A DNA stretch of 64,000 bases from Candidatus Moraniibacteriota bacterium (GTDB lineage: Bacteria > Patescibacteriota > Minisyncoccia > Moranbacterales > UBA1568): contig CP064989.1 of assembly GCA_016699875.1 (NCBI GenBank), positions 1,013,332-1,077,331 of the forward strand, given 5' to 3'. Positions within the stretch are counted from its first letter, which is position 1; each line of letters begins with the position of its first letter. The notes under the pieces were generated by a model. It was not told the DNA's origin and ran no database searches. It saw only the letters and a list, made by a program, of their open reading frames with translations. The position numbers were made by a program, and so were the translations under genes. This document shows, piece by piece, positions 9,521-53,963 of the stretch.

Positions 9521-9733
9521 ATGTCGGTACCGAAACAGCGGCATTCCAAAGCTCGGCAGGCTCGCGGGCGCGTTCGCTATGTAAAGTCCGTAAAGAATAG
9601 TGTGGCTTGCCCGAAATGTGGGGCGAGCATTTCGTCACACCGTGTGTGTCCGAAATGCGGCTTTTACAAGAATCGAGAATACGTAAATACGCTGAAAAAA
9701 GCGTCGGCATCGACAAAAAAAGAGCAGCAGTAA
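9521..9733 (+). CDS. rpmF: 50S ribosomal protein L32
   Basis: MSVPKQRHSKARQARGR... with the CPKCG...CPKCG zinc ribbon; 70 aa. Confidence 0.9.
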   Translation: MSVPKQRHSKARQARGRVRYVKSVKNSVACPKCGASISSHRVCPKCGFYKNREYVNTLKKASASTKKEQQ

Positions 9734-9782
9734 TTGCTCTCGAGCCTTAAAACAAGGGTCTCTTCTGATGGTTTCTTGAAAT

Positions 9783-10316
9783 ATGGCGAATCGGCATCTT
9801 CAACGATCGGTAGCAATGCAGGCGCTTTTCGAATGGGATTTTCGGAAGCGGAGCGATGCTGAGATGGCCGATATTGTGCGCCGGAATCTCGAGGAATTCG
9901 CCCCCGGGCTCGAAGACGCCTCATTTACGCGTGTTTTGGTTGAAGGGGCGTTAGCACATCGCAAGGTTATCGATCAACTCATTGAGAAGTGTGCGCCCGA
10001 GTGGCCCCTTGACCAGGTGACGGTGATCGACCGTAATGTGCTTCGACTCGGTATTTTTGAGTTGCTCTATGGTAATTACGACGAAGTGCCACCCAAGGTC
10101 GCGATTAACGAAGCTATCGAGTTGTCCAAGACATTTGGCAGTGACAGCTCCCCGCGGTTTATCAATGGCGTTTTAGGCACTATCTATCGTGAGATGGGGG
10201 AGCCAATGAAGGACGACTCAAGCGAAAAACGTCGTGCTGCGCTGAAACTCAAAGAATTGGAGGAACATCCGGGAGACATGAAAACCGAACCGATCGATTC
10301 GGATGACGCGGAGTGA
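9783..10316 (+). CDS. nusB: transcription antitermination factor NusB
   Basis: [13 protein letters not shown]... then ...[27 protein letters not shown], a typical NusB pattern. Confidence 0.85.
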
Positions 10317-11945: not shown

Positions 11946-12237
11946 GTGGATTCGGATTGATTTGACAGAATTTCTGAAATGTTTTCTCTATGGTGAAGTG
12001 GAAATATTCGCTAAACAGAAGGGAACGGTTGGGATTTTCCCGAATATAAAGGCTTTTCAAATGGACATATTTGTCCATTTTTTTTGACTTTTATTATTGA
12101 CATAAACAAATATTTATTGTAAAAAGTAAAGTTTACGAGGAATTATCATGAAGAAATCAGGATGTTTTTCTGTGGTAGGTGAGATGATTTGAAGCGAACG
12201 AGAAAGAGAAAGGGGGATAAACCTTTGGACAAAAGAA

Positions 12238-12876
12238 GTGAGTAGTCGTGATTTCATGGCTTTCATGGGGGCATTAGCGGGAGTGATTTCTCTGCTTGCT
12301 TATATTCCTTATATTTCCTCGATTATTCGAAGGAAGACTGTCCCAAGTCGAACGTCATTTTGGATATTATTCTTCGTGGGGTTGGTTACATTATTAGCAT
12401 ATAAGGGGTCTGGCGCGTCCAATACCCTTTTTTTTCTTATCGGAGATTTGGTTGGATGTTTCTTGATTGCCCTCCTGAGTCTTCTTTATGGAAAGGATGG
12501 GACGCAGACTTTTGACAAGCTTTGTTTTTTTGGAGCCATTGTGAGTTTGGGATTGTGGTTTTTCTTCCAGGAATATCCTTCGGTGGCGCTTATATCGAGC
12601 TTGTCGGTTGAGTTTGTTGCCATGATTCCTATTTTGAAAAAAGCGTACTTAAATCCGTTTGAAGAAGATATAACAACATGGCTTCTTTCTTTTGTTGCGG
12701 CAGTCATGAATATTTATGCGATAGAGACGTGGAGCTTTCTTGTTGTTCTTCTTCCGTTTTATGAGTTTGCGATTGTTGGAATGATCGTTCTGTTTCTTTC
12801 GAGAAGAAGGAAAAGCAAGGTTCCTTTGAATGACATCGCACCGCATCTAAAAATGGTTCGACTGGTAAGATATTGA
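12238..12876 (+). CDS. hypothetical polytopic membrane protein (about 6 TM helices)
   Basis: Multiple hydrophobic helices; the stop overlaps the start of the next gene by 4 nt (translational coupling). A+T-rich relative to its flanks. Confidence 0.6.
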   Translation: MSSRDFMAFMGALAGVISLLAYIPYISSIIRRKTVPSRTSFWILFFVGLVTLLAYKGSGASNTLFFLIGDLVGCFLIALLSLLYGKDGTQTFDKLCFFGAIVSLGLWFFFQEYPSVALISSLSVEFVAMIPILKKAYLNPFEEDITTWLLSFVAAVMNIYAIETWSFLVVLLPFYEFAIVGMIVLFLSRRRKSKVPLNDIAPHLKMVRLVRY

Positions 12877-14249
12877 ATATGACTGATAATGACATTGATT
12901 TGAAGGAGAGTCTAAGGAAAGAAGTCCAGAAAATATATACTCCGTTGTCTGTTGCAAAGGAAGAAATTTGGAAAAGATGGGGAAATAAAGAGCTGCAAAA
13001 GAATGTGAGTGAGTTTTTGGGCATTAAAGCTGAACGATTTTTTAAAGAAAGTCCGGTCGCCTGTTTGGGGAGGAATATTGTGAGTCCTACTATGGAGTTT
13101 AGCTATTTCTTGGAATTAGCCAAAGAGATAGATCTTGAACCTCTGGTTATAGAACATGTTAAAGATAAGTTTGTTACAGAAAACCCGGATAAGTACTATT
13201 TAGCGAAATTGTATTTTTACAATAAGAACGGAAGGAAGAATGATAGGAACATTGACACTGATTTTATCAACGCCATTGATTTCAATAAATATCAAGGAGA
13301 AAAAATATGTAACATAAATACAATGTGGGGAGAGAATCTTGTTGATTTTCAACATAGAATTTCTCATGACTTATTTCCTAATCACTGGAGGAAAAGTATC
13401 GATATATCGGAAATACTGGATTTAAATCACAAGGGGTTGAGTCAGTGTTACGATAAATATCTAGCTCTTTTTATCTTCGGAGGCGTGTTGTTCGAAAACT
13501 TCTTGTTAAGTAAAAACATCAAGGACTTTACACATAGAGTTGTGGTCCCCGCATTTGCCAAACTTGAAAAACTTTTTGGCATTAAGCCTCTTATTGTTCC
13601 TTTATCTTCAATAGAGGATCAGGATGACTTGTATTGGTGGTGTTATCCAACTTTAATTAAAGATGATATTATGGAACATATAACAATTGGTGGAGCAAAG
13701 TACAGGAAGATACATCACGGAGAGTTTAAGAATGCTCTTATAAAGCTTAAACCATCAAGGATAGTACCAACTGGAGTGGGTGTTTTTGCTGTTAGAAACC
13801 TAAGCAAGGGAATTATAATTGGTGATGTAAGGTTTTTAAGCGAAGACTTTTTTCTTACTCGAAATGACTATGAAAAGGTAGACCAGGAATCAAGGGGTGT
13901 AATAAAAAACTTCTGCATCCCAACTCCTGACGGTTTCTTTGCTCCTAAAGATGTTAATTATCTCTCTATCCCTTGGTATATCAATCATTCTTGTGATGGC
14001 AATGTTGGGTATGATAAAAATGGAAATTTTGTTACCATAAAAAACATTAAAAAGGATGACGAGCTCTCCTACGATTATGGATTAGCTGTGTCGGATCCTG
14101 GTTTTAAATTATATTGTAAGTGTAGATCAAAAAAATGCAGGAAAGTCATTACCGGGAATGATTGGAAGAATGTTGAATATCGAAAGAAAAACTATTCGCA
14201 TATGACCCCAGAGCTCAAGGAACTCATAGAGAAAACATATAAAGATTAA
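12873..14249 (+). CDS. SET-domain protein (putative protein-lysine methyltransferase) with an unrecognised ~290-aa N-terminal domain
   Basis: C-terminal SET signatures: GVGVFAVRNLSKGIIIGDV (GxG region), INHSCDGN (the NHSCxPN motif), ELSYDYG (the ELxxDY motif) and post-SET cysteines CKCRSKKC. The N-terminal 290 aa is K/N/I-rich with no motif I recognise. Confidence 0.75.
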   Translation: MNMTDNDIDLKESLRKEVQKIYTPLSVAKEEIWKRWGNKELQKNVSEFLGIKAERFFKESPVACLGRNIVSPTMEFSYFLELAKEIDLEPLVIEHVKDKFVTENPDKYYLAKLYFYNKNGRKNDRNIDTDFINAIDFNKYQGEKICNINTMWGENLVDFQHRISHDLFPNHWRKSIDISEILDLNHKGLSQCYDKYLALFIFGGVLFENFLLSKNIKDFTHRVVVPAFAKLEKLFGIKPLIVPLSSIEDQDDLYWWCYPTLIKDDIMEHITIGGAKYRKIHHGEFKNALIKLKPSRIVPTGVGVFAVRNLSKGIIIGDVRFLSEDFFLTRNDYEKVDQESRGVIKNFCIPTPDGFFAPKDVNYLSIPWYINHSCDGNVGYDKNGNFVTIKNIKKDDELSYDYGLAVSDPGFKLYCKCRSKKCRKVITGNDWKNVEYRKKNYSHMTPELKELIEKTYKD

Positions 14250-14255
14250 AGTTAT

Positions 14256-15932
14256 ATGGCATACAATTTGGTGACAAATATAGAATCTTGTTATGTATAT
14301 ATAAAAGATGCTCCTTTCGGTTTGATCTATTACTCGCATATTCCAACAGGAATTGCAGCGTTGTCTATAGGATTGTTTGTCTTTTACAGCAACAGAAAGT
14401 TTTTACTGAACAAGCTACTCTTTCTTTTCTCCCTCACCTTTTTTTTCTGGTCATTTGCTGATCTCGTTACGTGGACGTATAGCTACAATAGCGTCTACAC
14501 GATGTTTGCGTGGTCGTTATTGGGCGTTACAAATGTTCTACTTTTTGTCGTGAGCCTATATTTCACGTATGTCTTTCTCGATAGGAGAGATGTAACATCT
14601 TCGTTAAAATTGATTTTTGGCGCATTATTGCTTCCAGCTATTGTAATTACACCTACCTATTTTAACCTGGGCGAATTTAGTAATATTGATTGCTCTCCAA
14701 TTGAGGGGGATTACTTTAATTACTACCAGTACTTCATTAATGGTTTAGTGGTTATATGGATTGTTTTCCTATCATTTAGGAGGTATAGATTAGCGGGAAA
14801 AGAGCTTAAGAAACAAATAATGCTTTTTTCCTTTGGCATGAATTTTTTCTTAATGCTGTTTCTTTTGGCAGGGGTTTTGGCTCCTTACCTGTATGGACTT
14901 GGTGTTGTAAATGATTACAGAATTGAGTCTATGGGCATGTTTGGAATGCCCATTTTTCTTGGCCTCCTTGCGTACCTCATCGTTCGATATCAGGCATTCA
15001 ATGTAAAAATTATTGCAACACAAGCATTAGTGGTGACACTGGCGATATTGATTGGCTCACAGCTTTTCTTTATCAGGTCGCAGATAAATTTCATACTTAC
15101 ATCAATTACATTTCTCCTGTCTGTTCTCTTTGGCATTCTCCTCATCCGTTCTGTGAAGAATGAAATTCGACGGAAGGAAGAGCTGCAGATTGTGACGGAC
15201 AAATTGGCGGCGGCGAATGTGGAGCTCAAGCGTCTTGATCAGTCGAAGCCGGAGTTCATTTCGATCGCGTCGCATCAGTTGCGGACGCCATTGACGGCAA
15301 TCAAGGGATTTGTCTCGCTTTTGCTTGAAGGATCGTACGGCAAGGTGCCGGCACCGATCACGGATGTACTCGATAAGATTTATACGGCAAATGATCGAAT
15401 CGTGCACTTGGTGGAAGATTTGCTCAACATTTCCCGTATGGAATCGGGGCGGCTCAAGTACGAGTATGCAGAGGTGAATATTCCGGAATTCTTGGATGAA
15501 CTTCGCGATACGTTTGCGATCGTTGCCAAGAAGAAGGGTTTGGAGTTGACATTTGAGACGGTGACAGACTCGATCAAGCCGGCATGGGTGGATCGACAGA
15601 AGGCCTTCGAAGTAGTCTCGAATCTTATCGACAATGCGCTCAAGTATACGGCTGCCGGGAGTGTCCGGGTTCGCACGGAGGATGCGAGCGGTTTCATCCG
15701 TATCTCCGTGACGGATACAGGCGTTGGCATTGATTCCGATATGATGTCCGCCTTGTTTCAGAAGTTCTCTCGCGGCAAGGAGAGCGGCAAGATGCACGTG
15801 AGCGGCACCGGTCTCGGACTCTATGTCGGGAAGTCCATGATCGAGGCGCAAGGCGGCCACATCGGCGTCACCTCCGAAGGCACCGGCAAAGGCTCGACCT
15901 TCTTCGTGGAATTACCGGTGAAGCAAGGGTAA
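14256..15932 (+). CDS. sensor histidine kinase with N-terminal multi-TM (7-8 helix) sensor region
   Basis: H-box FISIASHQLRTPLTAIKGF; N/G boxes (NLIDNALKYT, DTGVGI, GTGLGLYV). About 300 aa of consecutive TM helices precede the kinase core. No response regulator adjacent. Confidence 0.88.
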   Translation: MAYNLVTNIESCYVYIKDAPFGLIYYSHIPTGIAALSIGLFVFYSNRKFLLNKLLFLFSLTFFFWSFADLVTWTYSYNSVYTMFAWSLLGVTNVLLFVVSLYFTYVFLDRRDVTSSLKLIFGALLLPAIVITPTYFNLGEFSNIDCSPIEGDYFNYYQYFINGLVVIWIVFLSFRRYRLAGKELKKQIMLFSFGMNFFLMLFLLAGVLAPYLYGLGVVNDYRIESMGMFGMPIFLGLLAYLIVRYQAFNVKIIATQALVVTLAILIGSQLFFIRSQINFILTSITFLLSVLFGILLIRSVKNEIRRKEELQIVTDKLAAANVELKRLDQSKPEFISIASHQLRTPLTAIKGFVSLLLEGSYGKVPAPITDVLDKIYTANDRIVHLVEDLLNISRMESGRLKYEYAEVNIPEFLDELRDTFAIVAKKKGLELTFETVTDSIKPAWVDRQKAFEVVSNLIDNALKYTAAGSVRVRTEDASGFIRISVTDTGVGIDSDMMSALFQKFSRGKESGKMHVSGTGLGLYVGKSMIEAQGGHIGVTSEGTGKGSTFFVELPVKQG

Positions 15933-29932: not shown

Positions 29933-30532
29933 ATGTTTTCAGAGCCCGAACAGGATATTATTGAGCGTTCGAAACAGTTTGTAAAGGATTCTTTCGTTGC
30001 ACATCCGCATTTTAGTTTTAACGACTGGAGTGTAATGTACAACCATAGCTGCACAGTCGCCTCTTTTGCTGGAATGATTGGAGCGAATGTTGTATGCGAT
30101 AAATTACTTGTGATACTTGGAGCTCTGTTGCACGACATTGGGAAAACATATGAAGCAGATGAGGAGACTTTGCATTTTGAACATGAATCCTTCAATCTCA
30201 TTGTTGCTGAGCCGTTTCTGGAAACATTAGGGTTATCTCCTGAACGATTGGAGAGACTGAAGCGACTTGTTTCTTATCAAGACAAAGAAGGTGTTGAGAT
30301 GAAAGTTATAAAAGATGCTGATGCTATTGCCTTGCCTGCAGACAAGCGGCTTTCTATGCTCTATATCGAATGGGCTGTTAAAGAAGGTTTGAGAAACTCT
30401 ATTGAAAGGAAAATCCGAAAATTCGACAAACTTCATTTTGAACTGAGTAAAGAAATTGGAAAACCACTGTTTAGTCGAATGAAGCAAGATTGGGATGAGT
30501 ATCGGAGAACAATTAATGCAAAATCATTATGA
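29933..30532 (+). CDS. HD-domain phosphohydrolase
   Basis: HD motif LGALLHDIGKTYE; ~199 aa. Between dcd and thyA, overlapping thyA by 4 nt. Confidence 0.7.
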   Translation: MFSEPEQDIIERSKQFVKDSFVAHPHFSFNDWSVMYNHSCTVASFAGMIGANVVCDKLLVILGALLHDIGKTYEADEETLHFEHESFNLIVAEPFLETLGLSPERLERLKRLVSYQDKEGVEMKVIKDADAIALPADKRLSMLYIEWAVKEGLRNSIERKIRKFDKLHFELSKEIGKPLFSRMKQDWDEYRRTINAKSL

Positions 30533-31524
30533 AAAAGCATCCTGAGTATCAATACCTCGATCTCCTGAAAGATATATTGAAGAACGGTGTATGGCAGGAA
30601 GATAAAGGGACTGGTGATCGCACCAAGAGTGTCTTTGGACGGCAGATTCGTTTTGATCTTTCGGAAGGATTCCCCCTTCTTACTACCAAAAAAACTTACT
30701 GGAAAGGAATCGTGTATGAACTTGCTTGGTTTTTGTCTGGGCAGGCGAATATTCGGTTTCTAGTCGAAAATGGTGTGCACATTTGGGATGACTATCCTTA
30801 TCGGCTGTATCGAGAACGGATGGAAAAAGAACATCTTCCCGAAATAACGAAAGAAGAATTTGTCGAGAAGATTAAAACTGATCTTTCTTTTTCAAAGAAG
30901 TTTGGAGAATTGCGGAATATTTATGGCGAGATGTGGCGGCGGTGGCCAGCGAAAGATGGTCGAACTATTGATCAGCTACGATGGGCGGTAGAAGAGATTA
31001 CTCGTGACTCGGATTGTCATAATGCAATTGTAACGTCATGGAATCCAGAATATCTCTACACTATGGCGAAACCGGAAGAGGCGCTTCGATTTCCGATTTG
31101 CCATAATATGTATCAGTTGAATGTAAAGAATCGTCGTGTCTCACTTCATTTGTATCAACGGTCGGCGGATATCTTTCTTGGTGTCCCGTTTAATATTGCG
31201 AGCTATGCGCTCTTGACGTTTCTTATCGCCAAGGCGACTGGGTATAAACCGGGAGAATTTGTTCATACTTTTGGCGATGCGCATATATATGAGGATCATA
31301 TGGATCAAGTGAAAGAGCAACTGCAACGGAAGCCGCTTCCGTTTCCGAAAGTGAGAATAAGCTCAACGTTTCGGGGCATAGATGATTTTCATCCAGAACA
31401 GGTAAAGTTGGTTGGGTATCAGTCACATTCTCCTCTTAAAGCGCGTATGGCTCTAGTTGGCGGGGTGAGTTCAAAATCATGGAAAGCCTATGCCAAAAAG
31501 TCAAAGAAGGAAAATAAGAGGTAA
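30529..31524 (+). CDS. thyA: thymidylate synthase (ThyA) with a small-domain insert and a Lys-rich C-terminal extension
   Basis: ICHNMYQLNV...LHLYQRSADIFLGVPFNIASYALLTFLIA...FGDAHIY active-site region. At 331 aa it is long: an insert lies near WDDYPY...NPEY, and a ~22-aa tail (VGGVSSKSWKAYAKKSKKENKR) follows the usual C-terminus. Confidence 0.9.
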   Translation: MKKHPEYQYLDLLKDILKNGVWQEDKGTGDRTKSVFGRQIRFDLSEGFPLLTTKKTYWKGIVYELAWFLSGQANIRFLVENGVHIWDDYPYRLYRERMEKEHLPEITKEEFVEKIKTDLSFSKKFGELRNIYGEMWRRWPAKDGRTIDQLRWAVEEITRDSDCHNAIVTSWNPEYLYTMAKPEEALRFPICHNMYQLNVKNRRVSLHLYQRSADIFLGVPFNIASYALLTFLIAKATGYKPGEFVHTFGDAHIYEDHMDQVKEQLQRKPLPFPKVRISSTFRGIDDFHPEQVKLVGYQSHSPLKARMALVGGVSSKSWKAYAKKSKKENKR

Positions 31525-44300: not shown

Positions 44301-46199
44301 ATGCGCGAAGATATCGTGTTTGCTCGGAGGGAAAAATTGGATCGGGTGACATCGGAAGTTGGCGATGCGTTTCCGGAGGAGTCGCACCGGACACATACGA
44401 ATGTCGAAGCGCTTTCCGATTTTGAATCGCTCGCGGAAAAAGAAATACAAGTGTCGCTCGTTGGACGGGTCAGGTCTCTTCGAAGCATGGGAAAAATCGC
44501 TTTTGCGCATATCGAGGATGAAAGCGGCAAGATGCAGATCTTCATACGGAGGGGCGCGCTTTCAAACGAATTGTTCTCGCTGTTTGTCGATGGTGTCGAC
44601 GTGGGGGATTTTATCGAAGCGACGGGGACGCTTTTCACTACCAAGCAGAATGAGAAGACACTCGCGGTTTCGACATGGCGAATGCTTTCGAAATCTCTGC
44701 GTCCCATGCCGTCAGAGTTCTACGGACTCAAAGATGAAGAAGAATTGTTGCGGCGGCGCTATCTCGACCTCGCAATGAATCCGGAAACAAGAGAACTCTT
44801 TCGTAAGAAATCCATCTTCTGGCAGACCATTCGGAATTTCCTTGCCGAAGAAAACTTTCTCGAAGTGCAGACGCCGGTTCTGGAGCATGTGCCGGGCGGC
44901 GCTGAAGCTGAGCCGTTCGTGACACATCATAATGCGCTTGACCAGGATTTCTACCTGCGCATTTCGCTGGAGCTTCCTTTGAAGCGTCTCTTGGTCGGCG
45001 GATATGAGCGCGTGTTTGAAATCGGGCGCGTTTTCCGCAACGAAGGCATTGACCGCGAGCATTTGCAGGAGTTCGACCACATGGAATTTTATGCCGCCTA
45101 TGCGGATATGAAGACGGGCATGGAACTGGTGGAGCAGCTCTATCGACTTATCGTCGAGCGCGTGACGGGTAACGTAAAGACTGTTTGGAATGATGAAACA
45201 ATTGATTGGCAGAAGCCTTTCGAGAGAGTGGATTATTTCACCGCATTCAAAAAAGAAACCGGCATCGATCTTTCGGAAGATATAACCATTGAGACTTTGA
45301 AGCGGAAATCGGACGAACTGGGAATCAAGTATGAATCGTCATACGGGAAGGGGAGAATGATTGATACGATCTATAAAAAGACAGTGCGAAAGAAACTCAT
45401 TCAGCCGTGCTTTTTGGTGGGGCATCCGATCGAGGTGTCGCCCTTGGCAAAGCGCGATCCGAAGTCGCCAAACAAAACGCTTCGCTTCCAGCCGATTGCG
45501 TGCGCAAGCGAACTCGGGAACGGTTTTGCAGAGCTTAATGACCCAATAGATCAGCGATCACGCTTCGAGGAACAAATGAAGCTGCGTGAGAGTGGTGATG
45601 TCGAAGCGCAGCAGCTTGACGAAGATTTCCTCGAAGCACTTGAATATGGCATGCCCCCCGCTTGTGGCTTCGGCATGAGCGAGCGTTTCTTTGCTATCCT
45701 TATGAATCGCTCCGTGCGCGAGACAGTCATTTTTCCTCCGATGAGAGACAAAGAACTGGATAAAAAACAAGGAAAGAAAACATTGCAAATAGCGGTGGCT
45801 ATTATCAACACGGGAATTGGATTGAAACCCTGGCAAGAACTGAATACGATAGCACATCTGAATGCTGCATTTGGAGCGAGAATTGGAAAGAGTCTATTCT
45901 TTCAAGACGAGATTACAACGGAAGATAATCAAAAAATAAAGCTGAATATCCAACACGCTATCATTATTAAAACGGTTCCATCAAATAATGTAATGCAATT
46001 GCTTGTAAGAAATGCGAAGGAACAACACGTAGAAGTTTCCGAGTTTACCGCTGAAATGTTGGAAACGACGAATGATAAGAAGGTTATCGATCTTACCCAG
46101 AAGAAAGAGCTGAAAGATGTACAATATTTGGGGGCACTTTTATTTGGGGAAAAAGAACTCGTTGAGAAACTCACTCAAGGGTTTGACCTGCATGAATAG
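44301..46199 (+). CDS. lysS: lysyl-tRNA synthetase (class II) carrying a ~145-aa C-terminal extension
   Basis: OB-fold N-domain and class-II core (FLEVQTPVLE...; motif 2 EIGRVFRNEGIDREHLQEFDHMEFY; motif 3 GFGMSERFF). The canonical end (...VIFPPMRD) is followed by extra sequence through 46199. Confidence 0.88.
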   Translation: MREDIVFARREKLDRVTSEVGDAFPEESHRTHTNVEALSDFESLAEKEIQVSLVGRVRSLRSMGKIAFAHIEDESGKMQIFIRRGALSNELFSLFVDGVDVGDFIEATGTLFTTKQNEKTLAVSTWRMLSKSLRPMPSEFYGLKDEEELLRRRYLDLAMNPETRELFRKKSIFWQTIRNFLAEENFLEVQTPVLEHVPGGAEAEPFVTHHNALDQDFYLRISLELPLKRLLVGGYERVFEIGRVFRNEGIDREHLQEFDHMEFYAAYADMKTGMELVEQLYRLIVERVTGNVKTVWNDETIDWQKPFERVDYFTAFKKETGIDLSEDITIETLKRKSDELGIKYESSYGKGRMIDTIYKKTVRKKLIQPCFLVGHPIEVSPLAKRDPKSPNKTLRFQPIACASELGNGFAELNDPIDQRSRFEEQMKLRESGDVEAQQLDEDFLEALEYGMPPACGFGMSERFFAILMNRSVRETVIFPPMRDKELDKKQGKKTLQIAVAIINTGIGLKPWQELNTIAHLNAAFGARIGKSLFFQDEITTEDNQKIKLNIQHAIIIKTVPSNNVMQLLVRNAKEQHVEVSEFTAEMLETTNDKKVIDLTQKKELKDVQYLGALLFGEKELVEKLTQGFDLHE

Positions 46200-46255: not shown

Positions 46256-46435
46256 ATGAATAAAGATCAAGAAAAAGAAATTCAAAAGAAGTTTGACGAG
46301 ATTTTGACGGAGGCGGAACGAAAAATTTCGGAGCTTGAAAAAAGTCGTGACGTGCTTGTCGCTGACATTGCTGAACAGGCACGGCTTGCTGCAGTTGAGC
46401 GGCTGAAGAAAGGTATTTCCGGACCAAGTAATTGA
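46256..46435 (+). CDS. small hypothetical helical protein (59 aa)
   Basis: ATG ORF MNKDQEKEIQKKFDEILTEAERKISELEKSRDVLVADIAEQARLAAVERLKKGISGPSN, below the ORF-track length cutoff. Lies in a low-GC stretch just upstream of the 838-aa gene. Confidence 0.3.
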   Translation: MNKDQEKEIQKKFDEILTEAERKISELEKSRDVLVADIAEQARLAAVERLKKGISGPSN

Positions 46436-46480: not shown

Positions 46481-48997
46481 ATGACGGTGCCATTGATGCG
46501 CGCACTTGAGAGTGCGACTCTTGGAAAAAATACGGAGAGCATCTCCAAAGAAGGAGAAGGAAAAGAGGAGAAAGAAGAGATAGGAAATGATCGCAATGTA
46601 GAAGATAAACAAAGCGAGGAAAGATTTAAGGAAAGAGCCGTGGCGATTGATGATCGTACGGAAGAACTTTCCGTCGAGAGTGTAAAAAACAGAGTGCGTG
46701 CGTGTTCCTCGGGTGTGAGTGAATTGGATATGGAAAAAGCGCTCGCCGGAAAGACGAGCGAGGAGATAAAAAGAATTGAAAACGAGTCAAGGCAGGTAGC
46801 TTCCGGTGTTGTTACGGAGAGTCTGGGCTATTTAAAGGAGATGCTGAGCAATGTTCCCGGATCGGCGAAAAGAGTTGTTGAGGGGATCGGTTCTGCGGCG
46901 GCGCATCCTGTCCGGACGGTTCACGAAACTTTCGATCTTATTTTCACCGTTCTTTCTGGGAAGCTTGAAGGGATGTTGGGATACGAAAATCTCCCTGAGC
47001 AACAAGCGCTTGAGAAGATGCAATTGGACTTTGGGAAAACGCATGGATCAATTTCTGCGGAACTCGAGACTTTTAAAAAAGATCCTGTGGGGGAAGGGCT
47101 CGCTATTGCGAGTATCGTGACGGGAGGTGTGGGTATAGCTCGCAAGGCAGCTGGTTTTGCTGGGAAAATGGGGTCCGCTGGGAGGGTTGCGGAAATCGAG
47201 CAAGCGGGAGCGATTGTCCGTACGGGAGAAGGCGTGACAAAAGCGGAACAAGCGGTATCGAGGGGTGTCCCTGTCGAAGAAACGGCGAATACTGCCTTTT
47301 CTGCTGAAAAGATAATAGGGAAAGCCGGTGGCAAGGGGGAATTTCCGGGATCTGTTTCTCTCGAAGCGAAAGTCGCTACCCTTGGTGCGGAGGGGAAGAA
47401 TCTCAATCGTATCAGAGAGGTAGAAGAGGTTTTGCCGGACGCTGAGTTTCCAGTGGAAACAGCTGATGTTCCTGTAAGTATGAATGCTACGAAAGACATT
47501 TCGCGTATCGGCGCTATTGAAAAAGCGGGAGCTCTGGGCGGAGCGGTGAAGTCGGGAGAGATGAGCGGCCTAAGATCTGAAGAGGTGGAATCAAAGAAAG
47601 AAAAATTTTTAACGGGAGAAGAACGACAGGACATTCGATCTTTCAGCAAACGGTTCGCGCCTTTTCGGAGGGATGAGCTAGCTCAAAATATTCGCGACCA
47701 GCGAAGAACTGATCGTCAGGAAAGGGCAAAAGTAACTGAAGAAAACGAAGGTCGAGACAGAAAACGTGAGGAAATCTCGACTGATATCGAAGCACTGAAA
47801 ATTCGGCAGTCTGAACTTGAAAAGACCGTTAGTGAAATTGAGCTGTCGATCCGTTCCGATAAGTCACGATTATTCTCTCGAATCCAAGAGTTTTTCGGAA
47901 GAAAGAATCTTAAGAGAGAAAGGACGTTGGAAACAACCCAAGAACAATTGGATCAGGTTCAGAATGAAATCGAAGAAAAGAACAAGCTCTTGGGCGAAAT
48001 GCAAGATATTCTTTTTGAAGAAACGCATCTTGAAAAAGCAAAAAGTGCATTAGAAGAGTTTTATGGTCGTCAGAGAGACATCAAGACAATGTATGAGTCG
48101 GAGAGTGATATTCGGGATGTTGAGAGTATTTCAAGGAAGTATAATACACTCTTCGTGCACTCTATGCCGGAGAGCAGCGTGTTTCAGAAAGGTACAGGGG
48201 TAAATAATCCAGGGATAAACACTGGAGAGGATTTTGGTGCCAAGGAAAGAGTGAATTTAATTCGTGGTATTAAGCCGACCATTTCAACCTCGACATTGGA
48301 GAATTTAGATTATGAGACAAGTAAGCGCGACGAGATGTACCAAGCCGGCGTTATTATTGGAGGTGGTCGAGTCGTGAGTGCCTATCGAGGAGATGCTGCA
48401 ACTCTTACGCACAGTCTATTTTCAAAGAAAGCGAAATACGATAGAAATCCTTTTTTGAGTGACACGAGTATACAGAATGATATTGAGGGAAGAATAGACG
48501 ACGCTATAAATAAACGATTTCCCGAGTCACCAGCAGCTGGCAAGAGAGTCTTGTCTGAAGAGGCATTGGGAAGAAGTGGTAATCCTGTTAATATAGACGG
48601 GTCTGGATATGCATATGGATGGAACGAGCTGGTTGTTGAAGATCCAAAAATTTCCGGTTTATATATACGAGAGGGGTTTCACTTTGATCCATGGAAATAC
48701 GTTGATTTAAGCGAAAGGCTTAACATCCCCTTGTACTTTTTGGGAACGGGAGGAGAGATTCGAAAATGGGATGAGGAATGGTTGTTATCACAAGCCGGAT
48801 TTGAAAGTTGGGAATTTGAAGACCGCATGAGAAAATCATCTTTTGATGAGATTATGAATTCAACTCCAAATGTCACTCAAGAAGAGAGGCTAGATATAAT
48901 TGATGACCTTCTGAAAGGAAGTATTCTTCGCGGAGAGAAGTTTTCTCGAGAAGTTCAGAATATGAAACGTGCTTTTAAACAGCGAACGGTAAAGTAA
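46481..48997 (+). CDS. large (838 aa) acidic coiled-coil-rich hypothetical protein, no recognisable domains
   Basis: Long uninterrupted ORF, E/K-rich; the central region is predicted coiled coil; the C-terminal ~240 aa are globular (…GYAYGWNELVVEDPKISGLYIREGFHFDPWKYV...). No TM helix or signal peptide. Confidence 0.6.
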   Translation: MTVPLMRALESATLGKNTESISKEGEGKEEKEEIGNDRNVEDKQSEERFKERAVAIDDRTEELSVESVKNRVRACSSGVSELDMEKALAGKTSEEIKRIENESRQVASGVVTESLGYLKEMLSNVPGSAKRVVEGIGSAAAHPVRTVHETFDLIFTVLSGKLEGMLGYENLPEQQALEKMQLDFGKTHGSISAELETFKKDPVGEGLAIASIVTGGVGIARKAAGFAGKMGSAGRVAEIEQAGAIVRTGEGVTKAEQAVSRGVPVEETANTAFSAEKIIGKAGGKGEFPGSVSLEAKVATLGAEGKNLNRIREVEEVLPDAEFPVETADVPVSMNATKDISRIGAIEKAGALGGAVKSGEMSGLRSEEVESKKEKFLTGEERQDIRSFSKRFAPFRRDELAQNIRDQRRTDRQERAKVTEENEGRDRKREEISTDIEALKIRQSELEKTVSEIELSIRSDKSRLFSRIQEFFGRKNLKRERTLETTQEQLDQVQNEIEEKNKLLGEMQDILFEETHLEKAKSALEEFYGRQRDIKTMYESESDIRDVESISRKYNTLFVHSMPESSVFQKGTGVNNPGINTGEDFGAKERVNLIRGIKPTISTSTLENLDYETSKRDEMYQAGVIIGGGRVVSAYRGDAATLTHSLFSKKAKYDRNPFLSDTSIQNDIEGRIDDAINKRFPESPAAGKRVLSEEALGRSGNPVNIDGSGYAYGWNELVVEDPKISGLYIREGFHFDPWKYVDLSERLNIPLYFLGTGGEIRKWDEEWLLSQAGFESWEFEDRMRKSSFDEIMNSTPNVTQEERLDIIDDLLKGSILRGEKFSREVQNMKRAFKQRTVK

Positions 48998-49103
48998 TAT
49001 ATTCATGTGAGGTTTTTTGTATATATACGAAGTTTTATCCATATTGCTATTCTACTTGTGTCGCCCTCGCCATTCTCTATTCAATAACTCTCTTTTGCTC
49101 CCT

Positions 49104-49388
49104 ATGCTTGATATTCAATATATTCGTGAGAAGAAAGATGTGGTTGCGAAGGCGGCAGCTAACAAGGGATTGTCGCTTGATGTGGAGCGGCTCTTGGCTG
49201 TTGATGCGGAGCGCATTTTGCTTCTGCAAGACACTGAGGAACTCAAGTCTATCAAGAATGATCTGAATGATCTCATGGCAAAGGCGACGCCAAAAGAGCG
49301 GTCGGAAATTATCGCGCGGGGAACAACAGTGCTTGATCAATTGATCAAAATGAAGAATATGATCTTTCGGAAGAGCTTTCGCTTTTGA
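49104..49388 (+). pseudogene. diverged partial copy of the serS 5' end (N-terminal tRNA-binding arm only, 94 codons)
   Basis: MLDIQYIREKKDVVAKAAANKGLSLDVERLLAVDAERILLLQDTEELKSIKNDLNDLMAK... aligns with the first ~95 aa of the intact SerRS at 52656. About 40 nt around the ATG, including 5'-UTR bases, are near-identical to 52641-52680. Confidence 0.6.
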
Positions 49389-50986
49389 GGAAAAATTTTC
49401 AGGTGCGCGAGGGACAGACGGTCAAAGAACATTTCGAGGAAACATTCTTAAAGAGAATCGGTATAAAGGACATAGAGGGTGCTATGGCGTACATCGAGGA
49501 ACGGAAGCGTCAGACGGACACGCGCAATAGATCATCCGTGCTTGATGGTTCTGTGCTGATAATGTCAAGCGATCTCATCAAGGGGTTCGATTCTCGCTTC
49601 CTTGACAAACTGCTTGATCGCGGGTTCGTTTCGCCGGAATTTGTCGGTGCGGAGACGCACGATGCAAAAACAAAATTAAAGCAGGGCGATTCGACGCCGT
49701 GGGATACCGATCTTGAGCGAGTAAAAGGAACGAGTATTTCTGAAGCGCTTGAGAGATCTTCTCTGGCGGATGGCTATGGCGATGTTGTTGCCGTTATTCG
49801 AAATCGAGGGCAATTCAATGAGACAAAGATTGGCGAACCGGCGATTGATGACGGTCGGATGGAACTTTTTGAAAGTGGTGTTATCAGGTCCGATCATATG
49901 GGCATCCGGACCGGATTTGGATCCACTGAAATCGATGCTCTTATTGCGAAGGGAGAAGTATCTGAAAGGAGTATGGATGATATTCGCTTTTCGATTGCTA
50001 AAAAAGGCTTCTATATTCCCGTTGTTGACCGTTCCGGTCGCGTGATTTTTATGCCCGGAGAATTTGACGAATACCGAAAAATATTCCGAGGTCTTGACCG
50101 GTATCACGGAGATCCGATGAGCGTGAGTGAAGATTGGAGGCAATCGCCACATGTAAACGAGATAGAGTCCATCGCTCAAACGAAAGAAAATATCGCGTAC
50201 CTTGAGAGTGCTGGAGGCGCTCTTTGCGATGAGCTCAAAGGGCTCCTTGCGGAATCAGGCATAGCTTTGCGCGCGGAGAAATTTGATGATGGAGTTGCCG
50301 GCGCGGTCGTGATCGATACCGGATCGACCGGTCGTGGCGCCGCGCTTGATGGCAATATTGACTTTGATTTTGTGCTCAAGGTGAACGATAATGATTTTGA
50401 AAAAGCAAAAGTGGCGGTGGAAAAAATGAAAGACTGGTATCCATTGGATACCTCATACGAGGTAAACGGTATGCGAACGTACCGCTTCAAGGGTTTTGAA
50501 CGCGATGGCAAGCATATTGATCTGGACGTGAGCGTGGTGAGAAAATCTGATTCCGAAAGTATGGATGCGAACGAGGCGATATCGAGAAAATATGAATCGA
50601 TACGGAAAAACTTCGGAGAAGAAGTCCTGCTGGATGTTTTGAGCAATGTGCGGTTTGCAAAAAAGAAATTGAAAGAAGCTGGCTGTTACAAGAAAGGTAT
50701 TGATCGAAGTGCGGGACAAGAGGGTGGGCTTGGCGGTATTGGTGTCGAGACATGGATATTGAAACACGATGGAGATGCTGTGCGGGCATTTACGGATTTT
50801 TACGGAAATGCATATGAGAATGGAGGTCTTCTTTCTTTCGAAAACTTCAAGAAAAAGTATAAAGTTTTTGGCGCAGGCAAAAATATTCGCGGTGATACTC
50901 GTTCGGAAAATTTTGTTGAGAAAATGGATGAGGTAGGATATTTAAAAATGGCCGAAGTGGCAAAGTCGATAGTTGAAATGAAGTAA
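49385..50986 (+). CDS. hypothetical protein with a central Pol-beta-superfamily nucleotidyltransferase motif; N-terminal ~290 aa unrecognised
   Basis: VVIDTGSTGRGAALDGNIDFDFVLKV matches the G[SG]-x(9-13)-D-x-[DE] core and resembles the cGAS/DncV-type GS...GRG..(S)D[IV]D arrangement. A likely third acidic residue lies in HIDLDVSVV. The downstream helical region reads GGLGGIGVETWIL. The ORF-track start is a TTG; the real start is uncertain (GTG at 49403 or a later ATG). Confidence 0.55.
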   Translation: MRKNFQVREGQTVKEHFEETFLKRIGIKDIEGAMAYIEERKRQTDTRNRSSVLDGSVLIMSSDLIKGFDSRFLDKLLDRGFVSPEFVGAETHDAKTKLKQGDSTPWDTDLERVKGTSISEALERSSLADGYGDVVAVIRNRGQFNETKIGEPAIDDGRMELFESGVIRSDHMGIRTGFGSTEIDALIAKGEVSERSMDDIRFSIAKKGFYIPVVDRSGRVIFMPGEFDEYRKIFRGLDRYHGDPMSVSEDWRQSPHVNEIESIAQTKENIAYLESAGGALCDELKGLLAESGIALRAEKFDDGVAGAVVIDTGSTGRGAALDGNIDFDFVLKVNDNDFEKAKVAVEKMKDWYPLDTSYEVNGMRTYRFKGFERDGKHIDLDVSVVRKSDSESMDANEAISRKYESIRKNFGEEVLLDVLSNVRFAKKKLKEAGCYKKGIDRSAGQEGGLGGIGVETWILKHDGDAVRAFTDFYGNAYENGGLLSFENFKKKYKVFGAGKNIRGDTRSENFVEKMDEVGYLKMAEVAKSIVEMK

Positions 50987-51292
50987 CAAGTATACAGCGC
51001 TCGAAAAGAAGGAATTTAACACAGTGATTCATGAAAAAGGTGTTGGACATCATGTGAAGGGGGTTTCCGAGGGTGCTGATGAAATCATTGTATTTGAGCC
51101 GGAGGATGTATGGATTGTTCGAAAAGAATCGTTGGTGGACATAGTAATGGAGAAAAATTGAAAGGTTCAGATTGTTTTGGTGCACCCATGTGTTATAAGG
51201 GAACCTTCTATAAAAGACGAAATGGGCATTTCATTGGAACTTGTCCTTTAGATAGAAAAAGGAAGAATTGTGCTTTTGAGCAGAAAAACATA

Positions 51293-51317
51293 AAGTTCTC
51301 ATTGACAATGAGAACTT
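51293..51317. promoter_or_regulatory. perfect 25-nt palindrome (10-bp arms) with TTGACA in its loop, ~20 nt upstream of the AAA-ATPase gene; candidate operator or -35 region
   Basis: aagttctcat-tgaca-atgagaactt. The arm sequence atgagaac recurs at the start codon (atgaatgagaacc). Confidence 0.35.
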
Positions 51318-51336
51318 ATGGGTGTAACCTCTCAAT

Positions 51337-52626
51337 ATGAATGAGAACCTAAAAACCATTGAAAAACGGACGCTTGTTGAGATCGCGGTGGAACAGCGGA
51401 CGTTTCTTGAATCTCTCCCGCTGTCTATTTCGCGGGAGGAGCTTGTTCGCGTACAGGCGCATATGGCGATCCCGCATACGGTGGTCATTGCCGGTATTCG
51501 TCGGTCGGGAAAGTCAACGCTTTTGCGGCAAATCATGGCGCTTTCCAAAGAGCCGTGGTACTACTTTAATTTCGAAGACGAGCGGCTCATCGGGTTTTCC
51601 GCTAGAGATTTTAACCTTTTGTATGAAGCGCTTATCGAGACCTTCGGCGAGCGACGCGTGTTCTTCTTTGATGAAATACAAAATGTCGCCGGATGGGAGC
51701 GGTTTGTGCGCCGTCTCTCGGAGAGCGGGCGCAAATTTTATATCACCGGTTCGAACGCGTCACTTCTCTCGCGTGAATTGGGGACCAAACTGACGGGTCG
51801 GTATGTGTCGCATGATCTCTACCCTTTTTCGTTTCGGGAATACCTGCGTTTTCAGGGCGTCGCATATTCTCTTGGAGACATTCTCGAGACGACGAAGCGT
51901 GCCGCGCTCAAAAGTCGTTTCAATGACTACCTCCGAGAAGGGGGGATGCCGGAATATCTCACCTATCAGTCGCCGGAAACGCTCAAGAAAGTGTATGACG
52001 ATATTCTCTATCGAGATATTCTCGTGCGATATGATATCCGGGAAGATCAGGCGCTTCGCGAACTTTCTTTTTATCTCCTCTCCAACATATCTCAGTCATT
52101 CTCGTACAATGGTTTGAAGGGTCTGTTTCGGCTCGGGAGTATGAATACGGTTCGAAGTTATGTCGGATATTTGGAAAATAGTTTTCTCTTCTCTACGATC
52201 CGCGCCTATGCCGATTCACTCAAGAAGCAAATAGCGTCGCCCAAAAAAGTCTACGGCATTGATACGGGAATGGCACAGACGATCGGATTTCGGTTTTCCG
52301 AGAACCGCGGAGCGTTTCTGGAGAATGTGGTTTTTCTGGAGTTGAAGCGGCGCGGGAAAGAGCTCTATTACTATCGAGCTGCGGATGGATGCGAGGCTGA
52401 TTTTCTTGTGAGAGAAGACAACAAAGTTGCTTCGGTCCTGCAGGTATCATGGAGCATCACGGAAGAAAAAACGCGCGAACGAGAACTGCGTGGTCTTCAA
52501 AGCGCCCTCAAGGCGCATGGTCTTCAAAACGGATTGCTCCTTACCGATGACGAACGGGACATGATCCATTCCGAAGAAGGAACGATTGAAGTGAAACCCG
52601 TTTTTGAATGGCTTTTGGAGGAGTAA
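51337..52626 (+). CDS. AAA-family ATPase with C-terminal DUF4143-type domain
   Basis: Walker A VVIAGIRRSGKSTLL; Walker B VFFFDEIQNV; ~430 aa, an architecture typical of the widespread AAA+DUF4143 family. Confidence 0.7.
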   Translation: MNENLKTIEKRTLVEIAVEQRTFLESLPLSISREELVRVQAHMAIPHTVVIAGIRRSGKSTLLRQIMALSKEPWYYFNFEDERLIGFSARDFNLLYEALIETFGERRVFFFDEIQNVAGWERFVRRLSESGRKFYITGSNASLLSRELGTKLTGRYVSHDLYPFSFREYLRFQGVAYSLGDILETTKRAALKSRFNDYLREGGMPEYLTYQSPETLKKVYDDILYRDILVRYDIREDQALRELSFYLLSNISQSFSYNGLKGLFRLGSMNTVRSYVGYLENSFLFSTIRAYADSLKKQIASPKKVYGIDTGMAQTIGFRFSENRGAFLENVVFLELKRRGKELYYYRAADGCEADFLVREDNKVASVLQVSWSITEEKTRERELRGLQSALKAHGLQNGLLLTDDERDMIHSEEGTIEVKPVFEWLLEE

Positions 52627-52655
52627 GATTTTTATTTGAAATTATTTTTCTCCTT

Positions 52656-53963
52656 ATGCTTGACATTCAATATATTCGCGATCACAAAGATGAGGTATCA
52701 AAGGCGGCAGAGGCGAAGCATGTCTCGGTGGATATCGATCAGCTTTTGGAACTCGACGCGCGGCGCAAGGAACTGCTGCGAGAGATAGAAGAACTTCGCT
52801 CCATCAAAAACGATATCAATGATCTTATTCCGAAAGCAGCTCCGGATGAGCGGGCGGAGCTGGTGCTTCGAGGCAAAGAAGTGAAAGGAAAACTTGATGT
52901 GAAAGAGCCGGAACTCAAAGAAACAGAAGAGTCATTTCGAATGCTCATGTATCTGGTCCCGAATATTCCAAGCGAAGATACGCCTTCCGGCCCGGATGAA
53001 AGTGGGAATCAAGTGCTCCGGCACTGGGGTGAGAAGCCGTCTTTTGAATTCCAACCGAAAGAGCATTGGGAAATCGCCGAGGCGCTCGGACTGATGGATA
53101 CGGAACGTGCGACCAAAGTGAGCGGTGCGCGGTTTCTCTATCTGAAGGGCGACCTGGTGCTTTTGGAATGGGCGATGATGTCGCTCGCATTTCAGACACT
53201 TACCAATGAAGAAACGCTCCGGTCTATTGCCGCTGAAGCTTCGCTTGATGTTCCGACGACGCCGTTTGTGCCGGTACTGCCGCCGGTTATGATTCGCCCG
53301 GATATGCACCGTCGCATGGGGCGACTCGATCCGGAAGAGATGTATGCACTCGAGCGGGACAATCTGACGCTCATCGGGAGTGCGGAGCACACGCTTGGTT
53401 CGATGTATGCTGATGAAATTCTTGCCGAGAAAGAACTGCCTATCCGTCTTGTCGGGTTTTCGGCGGCATTCCGGCGCGAGGCGGGATCATATGGGAAAGA
53501 CATGAAAGGAATGCTTCGCTTGCATCAGTTCAATAAGCTTGAGATGGAGTCCTTTACGACGCCGGAAGCGTCTCTCGCGGAGCAGAATTTTTTTGTGGCG
53601 ATACAGGAGTATTTGCTTCGCCAGCTGAATCTCCCATATCAGGTGGTTGCTGTCTGTTCGGGAGATATGGGAAAGCCGGATATGCGGCAGATTGATATAG
53701 AGGCCTGGATGCCCGGGCAGGGGAAATACCGCGAGACAAACACGTCGGACCTTATTGGCGACTTCCAGGCGCGTCGGCTTGAGACGCGAGTGCGCCGCGA
53801 AAACGGATCGGTCGAATATGCGCACATGAATGATGCCACCGCCTTTTCCGAGCGGCCGCTCATTGCCATTCTCGAAAACTATCAACAAGCCGATGGCAGC
53901 GTCATTGTTCCGAAAGTTCTGCGCCCGTTTGTCGGGAAGGAGGTGATTGCAGTAAAAAAGTAG
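52656..53963 (+). CDS. serS: seryl-tRNA synthetase
   Basis: N-terminal coiled-coil arm (MLDIQYIRDHKDEV...), then a class-II core with motif 2 GFSAAFRREAGSYGKDMKGMLRLHQFNKLE and motif 3 near GDFQARRLE. Downstream of the first Met at 52608; start chosen at the conserved MLDI. Confidence 0.9.
   Translation: MLDIQYIRDHKDEVSKAAEAKHVSVDIDQLLELDARRKELLREIEELRSIKNDINDLIPKAAPDERAELVLRGKEVKGKLDVKEPELKETEESFRMLMYLVPNIPSEDTPSGPDESGNQVLRHWGEKPSFEFQPKEHWEIAEALGLMDTERATKVSGARFLYLKGDLVLLEWAMMSLAFQTLTNEETLRSIAAEASLDVPTTPFVPVLPPVMIRPDMHRRMGRLDPEEMYALERDNLTLIGSAEHTLGSMYADEILAEKELPIRLVGFSAAFRREAGSYGKDMKGMLRLHQFNKLEMESFTTPEASLAEQNFFVAIQEYLLRQLNLPYQVVAVCSGDMGKPDMRQIDIEAWMPGQGKYRETNTSDLIGDFQARRLETRVRRENGSVEYAHMNDATAFSERPLIAILENYQQADGSVIVPKVLRPFVGKEVIAVKK

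Follow-up and report, generated by a model that had tools for sequence, protein, structure and literature searches.

Polymorphic toxins and polyvalent proteins are very large, multi-domain proteins that carry nucleotide-modifying enzymes at their end and appear to move horizontally, and in the polymorphic toxins ADP-ribosyltransferases (ARTs) and nucleotidyltransferases (NTases) are common as warheads (PMC3482391). The ART fold is also that of the NAD+ lobe of Tpt1/KptA, which is accompanied by a winged-helix RNA lobe, and the HGT motif of these enzymes contacts the NAD+ ribose (PMC6333775). Class I CCA-adding enzymes, in turn, are built from head, neck, body and tail. Here we analyse a 64,000-nucleotide (nt) stretch of the genome of a Candidatus Moraniibacteriota bacterium (contig CP064989.1, positions 1,013,332 to 1,077,331; hereafter the window), which contains an open reading frame (ORF) for a 533-amino-acid (aa) protein that shares features with each of these systems. 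A substantial part of bacterial diversity belongs to the Patescibacteria, or candidate phyla radiation (CPR) bacteria, and most of the large proteins that they encode have no assigned function. In its make-up the protein resembles a Tpt1/DarT-like ART joined to a template-independent NTase of class I; on the features compared below it does not qualify as a cGAS/DncV-like nucleotidyltransferase (CD-NTase), a CCA-adding enzyme, a Tpt1/KptA, a DarT or a polymorphic toxin. An earlier, sequence-only reading had placed it with the CD-NTases and paired it with the adjoining AAA ATPase. We consider it, with a probability of about 65%, to be the cut-off C-terminal end (ART-like domain plus NTase) of a family of giant proteins from ultra-small bacteria, rather than one partner in a two-gene defence system. 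Known folds are combined in this family in a new way, and the copy in the window has travelled, truncated, with a lineage-specific insertion.

The giant-protein family and its copy in the window

The ORF exists as first described, begins with TTG, and encodes the same sequence (100% identity) as a hypothetical protein that NCBI lists for a Candidatus Moraniibacteriota metagenome-assembled genome (MAG). The protein belongs to no recognised family in Pfam, NCBIfam or PADLOC; a Pfam match to G1_gp67_N (E 0.027), below threshold and non-recurrent in the family, was dropped. A word-indexed search returned 12 homologues only, and an exhaustive profile search of 1.84 billion representatives returned 1,292 clusters, 819 of them at E<=1e-30, in which the ~620-aa match nearly always forms the very C-terminal end of a protein 1,000-3,300 aa long. 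The median stop-to-stop length of the host ORFs is 1,472 aa. When one genome from each of 185,579 species was scanned with a pattern, 410 species proved to have the family. Its hosts are mostly Patescibacteria/CPR, together with a block of small-genome gut 'Bacilli/Clostridia' MAGs (Firmicutes). The window ORF is thereby linked with a family comprising over 1,000 clusters of giant proteins, for which Pfam, NCBIfam and PADLOC have no model, and exposes, though itself a fragment, a large and wholly unannotated enzyme family in microbial dark matter.

Nine of the giants (up to 3,317 aa) contained no Pfam domain and are named by no database source, and neither transmembrane segments nor signal peptides were predicted in 24 of them. 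E, K and D are abundant in their N-terminal regions. All-against-all comparison showed that the conserved core reaches ~200 aa upstream of the start of the window ORF, and that the N-termini beyond this point are hypervariable. The full module consists of a ~200-aa helical pre-domain, an ART-fold domain and a bilobal class-I NTase, and the fusion of the last two is obligatory across more than 1,000 clusters. Full-text literature searches yielded no description of an ART-NTase fusion or of the giant family. The pre-domain gave weak hidden Markov model (HMM) matches to Legionella DotZ (E 0.02-0.06) and to C3 ADP-ribosyltransferase (E 0.23), which we treated as helical or compositional noise. A phage origin was likewise rejected, as no relatives of the family were present in 2.9 million viral contigs.

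The window ORF is a 5'-truncated fragment of a giant gene of ~1,400 aa. When a profile of 24 full-length giants, 1,457 positions long, was compared with the window, profile positions 913-1455 alone matched, at nt 49337-50977. The alignment begins 16 in-frame codons (SIDQNEEYDLSEELSL) before the TTG, and an in-frame TGA at 49334-49336 bounds the family homology upstream and marks the truncation junction. The conserved pre-domain was found nowhere in the window, in any frame. The metagenomic relative L093 (75% identical in aa, 78% in nt sequence) is homologous in nucleotide sequence from window position 49341 onward and has 902 more in-frame codons upstream, the pre-domain included (E 2e-61). 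In the fragment that is left the 549 codons stay open, and it keeps 49 of the 49 positions that are at least 95% conserved among 180 family members.

Other family genes are also found in shorter or divided form. One version of 654 aa (P0009) starts shortly upstream of the ART-fold domain. In L001 (4936-9512; 1018+503 aa) and in L003 (639-4761; 819+568 aa, overlapping) two ORFs make up the giant gene, the split falling at a nearly equal place in both, again just upstream of the ART-fold domain; frameshift errors, programmed frameshifting and true two-chain forms could each account for these splits. Separately, one of 32 members scanned individually matched HEPN_RiboL-PSP (E 7.5e-5), presumably in the variable N-terminal region, which hints that some giants may carry extra RNase-type domains.

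Two enzyme folds in the C-terminal module

The claim that the ORF carries a genuine Pol-beta NTase signature was upheld. An AlphaFold2 model of the 533-aa protein (pLDDT, a per-residue confidence score, 82.8; pTM, a score for the overall fold, 0.83; another AlphaFold2 model reached pLDDT 77.8) places an NTase fold in the C-terminal half, around GS...DFD, with the catalytic motifs on a mixed beta-sheet and an all-helical second lobe, as is typical of Pol-beta enzymes. The quoted motif strings are all present, but VVIDTGSTGRGAALDGNIDFDFVLKV lies at residues 308-333 and not at ~295-320. Among 180 diverse family members G313, S314, R317, D326 and D328 are 100% conserved, and these residues together with D381, K426, Y435, K436, G448, G451, G453, E455 and W457 are conserved at 99-100%, so that the signature is not a chance resemblance. 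The third carboxylate, which had been sought in HIDLDVSVV, is D381 (99% conserved). The helices modelled at residues 395-531 follow directly C-terminal to the catalytic lobe, and within them the motif FAKKKLKEAGCYKK...GGLGGIGVETWIL (the latter being residues 447-459) is what we take to be the counterpart of the substrate-binding lobe of poly(A) polymerase (PAP)-, OAS- and CCA-type enzymes. The NTase active site, GS...DxD...D, is intact and invariant, and is accompanied by a helical lobe of this type.

The more specific identity proposed for the NTase, that of a cGAS/DncV-like enzyme, was not supported. Some 217-233 residues superpose on the two-lobe cores of CCA-adding enzymes, terminal uridylyltransferases (TUTases), PAPs, OAS and CD-NTases alike. 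The closest structures, however, are the archaeal CCA-adding enzyme, TUTases and PAP (TUT7 14.4, Cid1 14.2, poly(A) polymerases 13.6), and the scores of the CD-NTase/OAS group, to which CdnB, CdnC, CdnD, DncV and cGAS also belong, are lower than those of the RNA-tailing enzymes, by about 2-3 Z units (CdnG 13.3, CdnE 13.1, OAS1 13.1). SMODS was matched by one of the 32 individually scanned members, at E 0.0065, and not by the window protein, which also matched none of the PADLOC HMMs for the cyclases of CBASS anti-phage systems. Unlike these cyclases, the family has no recurring effector, Cap2 or Cap3 neighbours in 80 loci, is absent from viral contigs and does not occur in a phage-defence setting. 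A weak signal for NTP_transf_2 recurs in 7 of the 32 members (best E 2.6e-4), the window protein itself not rising above threshold, and tRNA_NucTransf2 was matched neither by it nor by the 32. A housekeeping CCA-adding enzyme, which had been named as the kind of match that would speak against the NTase claim, is not what was found: of the A. fulgidus enzyme (4x4n) head and neck alone align (217 of 436 residues, 15% identity), and the window NTase, a region of ~272 residues, ends after the helical lobe and thus has no tRNA-binding body and tail. In further contrast with the CCA-adding enzyme it is fused to an ART-fold domain and normally ends a giant protein. In comparison with TUT7, Cid1, PAP and GLD-2, the window NTase is bacterial, has no RNA-binding accessory domains and matches none of these families in sequence.

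For the N-terminal ~290 aa, described initially as an unrecognised domain, it remains true that no sequence family was recognised; the predicted structure, in contrast, shows an ADP-ribosyltransferase fold, and residues ~55-245 are accordingly modelled as an ART-fold domain. Its structural neighbours are archaeal KptA (8.9), DarT (8.3 and 7.9) and OspC3 (8.2), followed by the Rhs toxins TreX and TreTu, SopF, PARP15, LT, CteC, CARDS and the diphtheria and pertussis toxins; a similar list, with DarT1, Tpt1, DarT, ExoA and cholix, was returned by Foldseek. Conserved residues of the domain are D63, K66-G67, G80, E85, D102, T104, P105, D107, T108, D109, G132, E160, F162, H171, G173, R175, T176, G177, G208, Y210 and P212. 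They form a non-canonical pattern, in which K66-G67 is followed by an invariant acidic D102-x-T-P-x-D107-T-D109, by E160, by H171-x-G-x-R175-T-G and by G208-x-Y-x-P212. By strand position alone, K66, T108 (with D107 and D109 beside it) and E160 are the candidates for a triad. In the predicted pocket K-G replaces H/R-G, and D-T-D replaces S-T-S or Y.

Compared with Tpt1/KptA, only the NAD+ lobe is shared and aligns. The winged-helix RNA lobe is absent, two long helices precede the ART strand in the models, and neither the window protein nor the 32 members matched PF01885. The tetrad Arg-His-Arg-Arg, found in Tpt1/KptA, is also absent, and on the strand that bears Arg in those enzymes the family instead has the invariant D-x-T-P-x-D-T-D. 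The HGT motif is replaced in the family by K-G-[IF]; the strand judged equivalent from collinearity reads [IL]-K66-G67-[FI], with K conserved at 93% and G at 88%. DarT differs in its conserved residues, and the family shows neither a DarT Pfam match nor a recurrent DarG macrodomain partner.

The insertion at serS and duplications around other family genes

As first reported, the ORF lies in a serS-flanked insertion and adjoins an AAA_14/DUF4143 ATPase gene (Table 1). The insertion sits at the very first codons of serS and measures 3,552 bp from repeat to repeat; besides the AAA gene and the truncated module it contains foreign-like serS codons ~9-78 (61% nt identity), and no integrase or transposase was found in it. 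In two relatives, L084 (92% nt identity) and L088 (79-89%), lysS, the gene for an 838-aa protein and an intact serS are contiguous and the insertion is absent. A four-way alignment shows that the left copy tracks the relative up to a core, TTTTGCTCCCTATGCTTGAyATTCAATATATTCG, and then diverges, and that the right copy tracks it from this 34-nt core onward. The diverged 5' copy, serS', is 64.5% (nt) and 56% (aa) identical to the resident serS; 22 of 23 nt match at the start, identity then falls to 61% and is random after ~49340. The serS' ORF runs past this homology to a TGA that overlaps the TTG start of the module (TTGA), and translation from the TTG could therefore be coupled to the serS' stop. 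Of its native upstream sequence the intact serS has kept just 11 nt, and its transcription must consequently run through the insertion, so that the module fragment is probably transcribed as well. In the simplest model, a circularised fragment of a related donor genome, broken inside the giant gene, would have entered by a single crossover at the conserved serS start. Natural competence is documented in cultivated Saccharibacteria (PMC10187176).

A comparable signature surrounds other family genes. Upstream of the full-length giant in L093 lies a 58-codon diverged 5' copy of a phosphoglucomutase-type gene (pgm'), with the intact pgm downstream; the two have 60% aa and 75% nt identity, and the copy takes in ~90 nt upstream of the gene. 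Direct repeats of 51-185 nt (84-96% identity) bracket the giant gene in 4 of 49 usable loci, as against 0 of 98 mismatched controls, and the bracketing duplication is often the 5' end of a downstream housekeeping gene. These observations document a recurrent gene-insertion signature, namely an insert that has beside it a diverged duplicate of the 5' end of a housekeeping gene and is without an integrase, and suggest that family genes move horizontally by an integrase-free route.

Table 1. Coordinates of the features discussed, as window positions unless another locus is named.
Feature	Position	Strand	Remarks
ORF of 533 aa	49385..50986	+	TTG start
In-frame codons with family homology	49337..49384	+	16 codons upstream of the TTG
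ART-fold domain (predicted)	49547..50119	+	residues ~55-245
Bilobal class-I Pol-beta NTase	50168..50983	+	residues ~262-533: leading helix, catalytic beta-sheet lobe, helical substrate lobe
Catalytic motif VVIDTGSTGRGAALDGNIDFDFVLKV	50306..50383	+	carries G313-S314, R317, D326, D328
HIDLDVSVV strand	50513..50539	+	residues 377-385; bears D381
Helical-lobe signature FAKKKLKEAGCYKK...GGLGGIGVETWIL	50654..50761	+	K426, Y435, K436, G448, G451, G453, E455, W457
Left 34-nt direct repeat (TTTTGCTCCCTATGCTTGATATTCAATATATTCG)	49093..49126	+	bounds the insertion
serS' (diverged copy of the first ~78 serS codons)	49104..49388	+	Pfam Seryl_tRNA_N E 6e-12; ATG 49104
Lineage-specific inserted DNA	49127..52644	+	3,552 bp repeat to repeat
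AAA_14 + DUF4143 ATPase	51337..52626	+	Pfam AAA_14 1e-35, DUF4143 8e-22; PADLOC PDC-S01 7e-115
Right 34-nt direct repeat (TTTTTCTCCTTATGCTTGACATTCAATATATTCG)	52645..52678	+	spans ribosome-binding site and start of intact serS (ATG 52656)
pgm' / pgm duplicates	L093:18-275 and L099:393-650
L005 repeats	5948-5998 / 9629-9679		exactly the first 51 nt of the downstream gene
L034 repeats	5096-5279 / 9598-9782
L004 repeats	4300-4363 / 9797-9860
L035 repeats	3846-3954 / 9855-9962

Proposed function, rival readings and neighbouring genes

In the mechanism that we propose, the two domains would act on one and the same substrate, most probably the end of a nucleic acid (RNA), and each would transfer a nucleotide group to it. 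The ART-like domain would carry out an NAD+-dependent transfer of ADP-ribosyl type, the NTase domain an Mg2+-dependent addition of nucleoside monophosphates from the triphosphates (NTPs), and the hypervariable N-terminus of the full-length proteins would give targeting. Such chemistry on RNA or single-stranded DNA (ssDNA) ends is tentatively favoured over other possibilities because enzymes that work on nucleic-acid ends are the nearest structural neighbours of both domains: the CCA-adding enzyme, TUTases and PAP for the NTase, and Tpt1, KptA and DarT for the ART-like domain. It could also be proposed, though we regard this as quite unlikely, that the module is a new bifunctional NAD+/NTP enzyme, borne at the tip of giant hypervariable proteins in ultra-small, host-dependent bacteria (CPR and reduced gut Firmicutes), that would write a mark of ADP-ribose plus nucleotide(s) on nucleic acids or proteins of the host or of the cell itself, its genes spreading as integrase-free cassettes at the 5' ends of housekeeping genes and leaving diverged 5' duplicates behind. 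If both domains are active, the module would offer a tractable way to study the modification of nucleic acids or host targets by ultra-small symbionts, since both active sites are mutable and the module spans ~550-750 aa.

It should be emphasized, however, that several observations weigh against this interpretation, most of them touching the ART-fold domain, for which the support is structural. Foldseek gave nothing better than E 0.03 on this domain, none of the 32 members matched an ART family of Pfam, and both canonical triads, H-Y-E and R-S-E, appear to be missing, as is the HGT motif of Tpt1, so the domain may serve for binding instead of transfer, or may take another substrate. When an alignment of E. 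coli KptA and its homologues was compared with the 180-sequence family alignment by hhalign, the default run returned a probability of 0.06% and nothing significant, and the permissive score of 18.0 stood beside negative controls of 15.9 and 16.4; it is not counted as evidence, and sequence-level proof of the ART assignment by this route was rejected. The permissive placement, with its control-level score, makes the ART domain collinear with exactly the NAD+ lobe of KptA and pairs LYHGT..FL..I..QGL with hIKGI..YL..IL.NGS, RHG.PVhL with YG.hhhV, and AENGVWLT with IA.NGFYIP (KptA versus family). As to substrate, the RNA-end class is extrapolated solely from the nearest structural neighbours of the two domains. 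As to origin, the single crossover is a model of the mechanism, no donor-like giant-AAA-serS arrangement was found in 83 + 8 loci, the adjacency of contigs L093 and L099, on which the pgm duplication depends, is one that we infer, and a scan for promoter and terminator consensus sequences around the ORF gave counts not above shuffled expectation.

It could be argued that, whatever the family does elsewhere, the window ORF is a dead pseudogene remnant brought in with the AAA gene. This is a serious contender, to which we give somewhat less than even odds: ~63% of the gene has been lost, ~200 conserved residues of the module among them, the non-ATG start arose by accident at a recombination junction, and close relatives manage without the ORF. 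Against this reading, the frame of 549 codons is intact and every near-invariant residue is in place; the natural split and short versions (L001, L003 and P0009) likewise start just upstream of the ART-fold domain, and the ORF lies on the transcription path to the essential serS with a coupled TTGA start. The main alternative to chemistry on RNA or ssDNA ends is that the family comprises host-directed toxins or effectors of episymbionts, in which the ART and NTase would form a warhead that modifies DNA, RNA or proteins of the host, delivery to specific hosts would depend on the hypervariable N-terminus, and the window copy would be a disarmed or orphan toxin fragment. The presence of DarT, OspC3, SopF, CteC, TreX and TreTu among the ART neighbours is consistent with such a role, as are the giant, charged and hypervariable proteins in parasitic or episymbiotic organisms, the apparent mobility of the genes with their flanking duplications, and the HEPN RNase-type match in the variable region of one member. 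We nevertheless consider it rather unlikely, for none of the 24 giants has a signal peptide or transmembrane segment, no immunity or antitoxin gene and no conserved neighbour adjoins them, and neither trafficking domains nor secretion-system linkage was detected. Moreover, the pattern of conservation is reversed: polymorphic toxins combine a conserved N-terminal trafficking region with a variable C-terminal toxin and an immunity gene (PMC3482391), whereas in the giants it is the C-terminal enzymes that are conserved, across phyla, and the N-terminus that varies.

A role in housekeeping RNA repair or maturation, with a Tpt1-like 2'-phosphotransferase joined to an enzyme of CCA-adding or tailing type to heal and rebuild the ends of tRNA or other RNA, is improbable. 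The tRNA-binding domains of the CCA-adding enzyme and the RNA lobe, tetrad and HGT motif of Tpt1 are all missing, the distribution is patchy and mobile-looking in the species scan, and giant hypervariable N-termini are atypical of housekeeping enzymes. The pairing suggested by the position of the ORF, in which a second-messenger synthase of CD-NTase/OAS type would form with the AAA_14/DUF4143 ATPase an island-borne two-gene defence system, is highly improbable. The structural scores and the CBASS and SMODS results speak against the synthase, only 1 of 83 loci has the ATPase gene within 8 kb of a family member, and the ORF is itself a fragment of a longer gene. In addition, PDC-S01, the PADLOC model that the ATPase matches, is already a candidate defence system of a single gene, and the family, absent from viral contigs, has housekeeping genes for neighbours. 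The ATPase gene is thus a fellow passenger of the insertion and not a conserved partner of the module, as which it was rejected, and a tempting mis-annotation as a CBASS-like cyclase with an AAA effector is corrected.

Of the other window neighbours, the gene for the 838-aa protein was near the family in none of the 83 loci and serS in 2. When neighbouring ORFs of at least 90 aa from 80 loci were clustered, no family recurred beside the giants; the commonest neighbour, an ABC-F-like ATPase, was present in 9 of the 80 and several kb away. A small coiled-coil ORF (~55-59 aa) occurs in the window at ~46256-46435, before the 838-aa gene, and in L093 (306-473) before the full-length giant, with 73.5% nt identity. 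Present upstream of the giant in L093 and L005, it was considered as a conserved partner and rejected, being found in 0 of 58 loci.

The 838-aa protein itself (window 46481-48997) has no Pfam domain and consists of an acidic low-complexity N-terminus, a central coiled coil, which gives a weak PADLOC match to LmuB (E 3e-4), and a globular C-terminal region of ~300 aa. Only 4 homologous clusters, all of 645-837 aa, were found in 5.8 billion proteins, and the gene is conserved between lysS and serS in related strains. It was considered as the lost N-terminal half of the giant, since the sizes sum to ~1,500 codons and its C-terminus was thought pre-domain-like. This was ruled out, as no significant phmmer or profile match was obtained, the homologues are stand-alone proteins, and the relatives have serS directly next to the gene.

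Upstream of it, the lysyl-tRNA synthetase (LysRS) ORF ends in a C-terminal DUF2000 domain (window 45741-46196, Pfam E 2e-19) and encodes a LysRS-DUF2000 fusion; L084 aligns through DUF2000, and the more distant L088 has a 497-aa LysRS without it. Across the window, GC content dips at 12001-15000 (0.35-0.38) and at 30001-31000 (0.41) compared with ~0.50 elsewhere, which could mark acquired segments. GC skew is positive in all 1-kb windows, and nearly all long ORFs between 30 and 64 kb are on the + strand.

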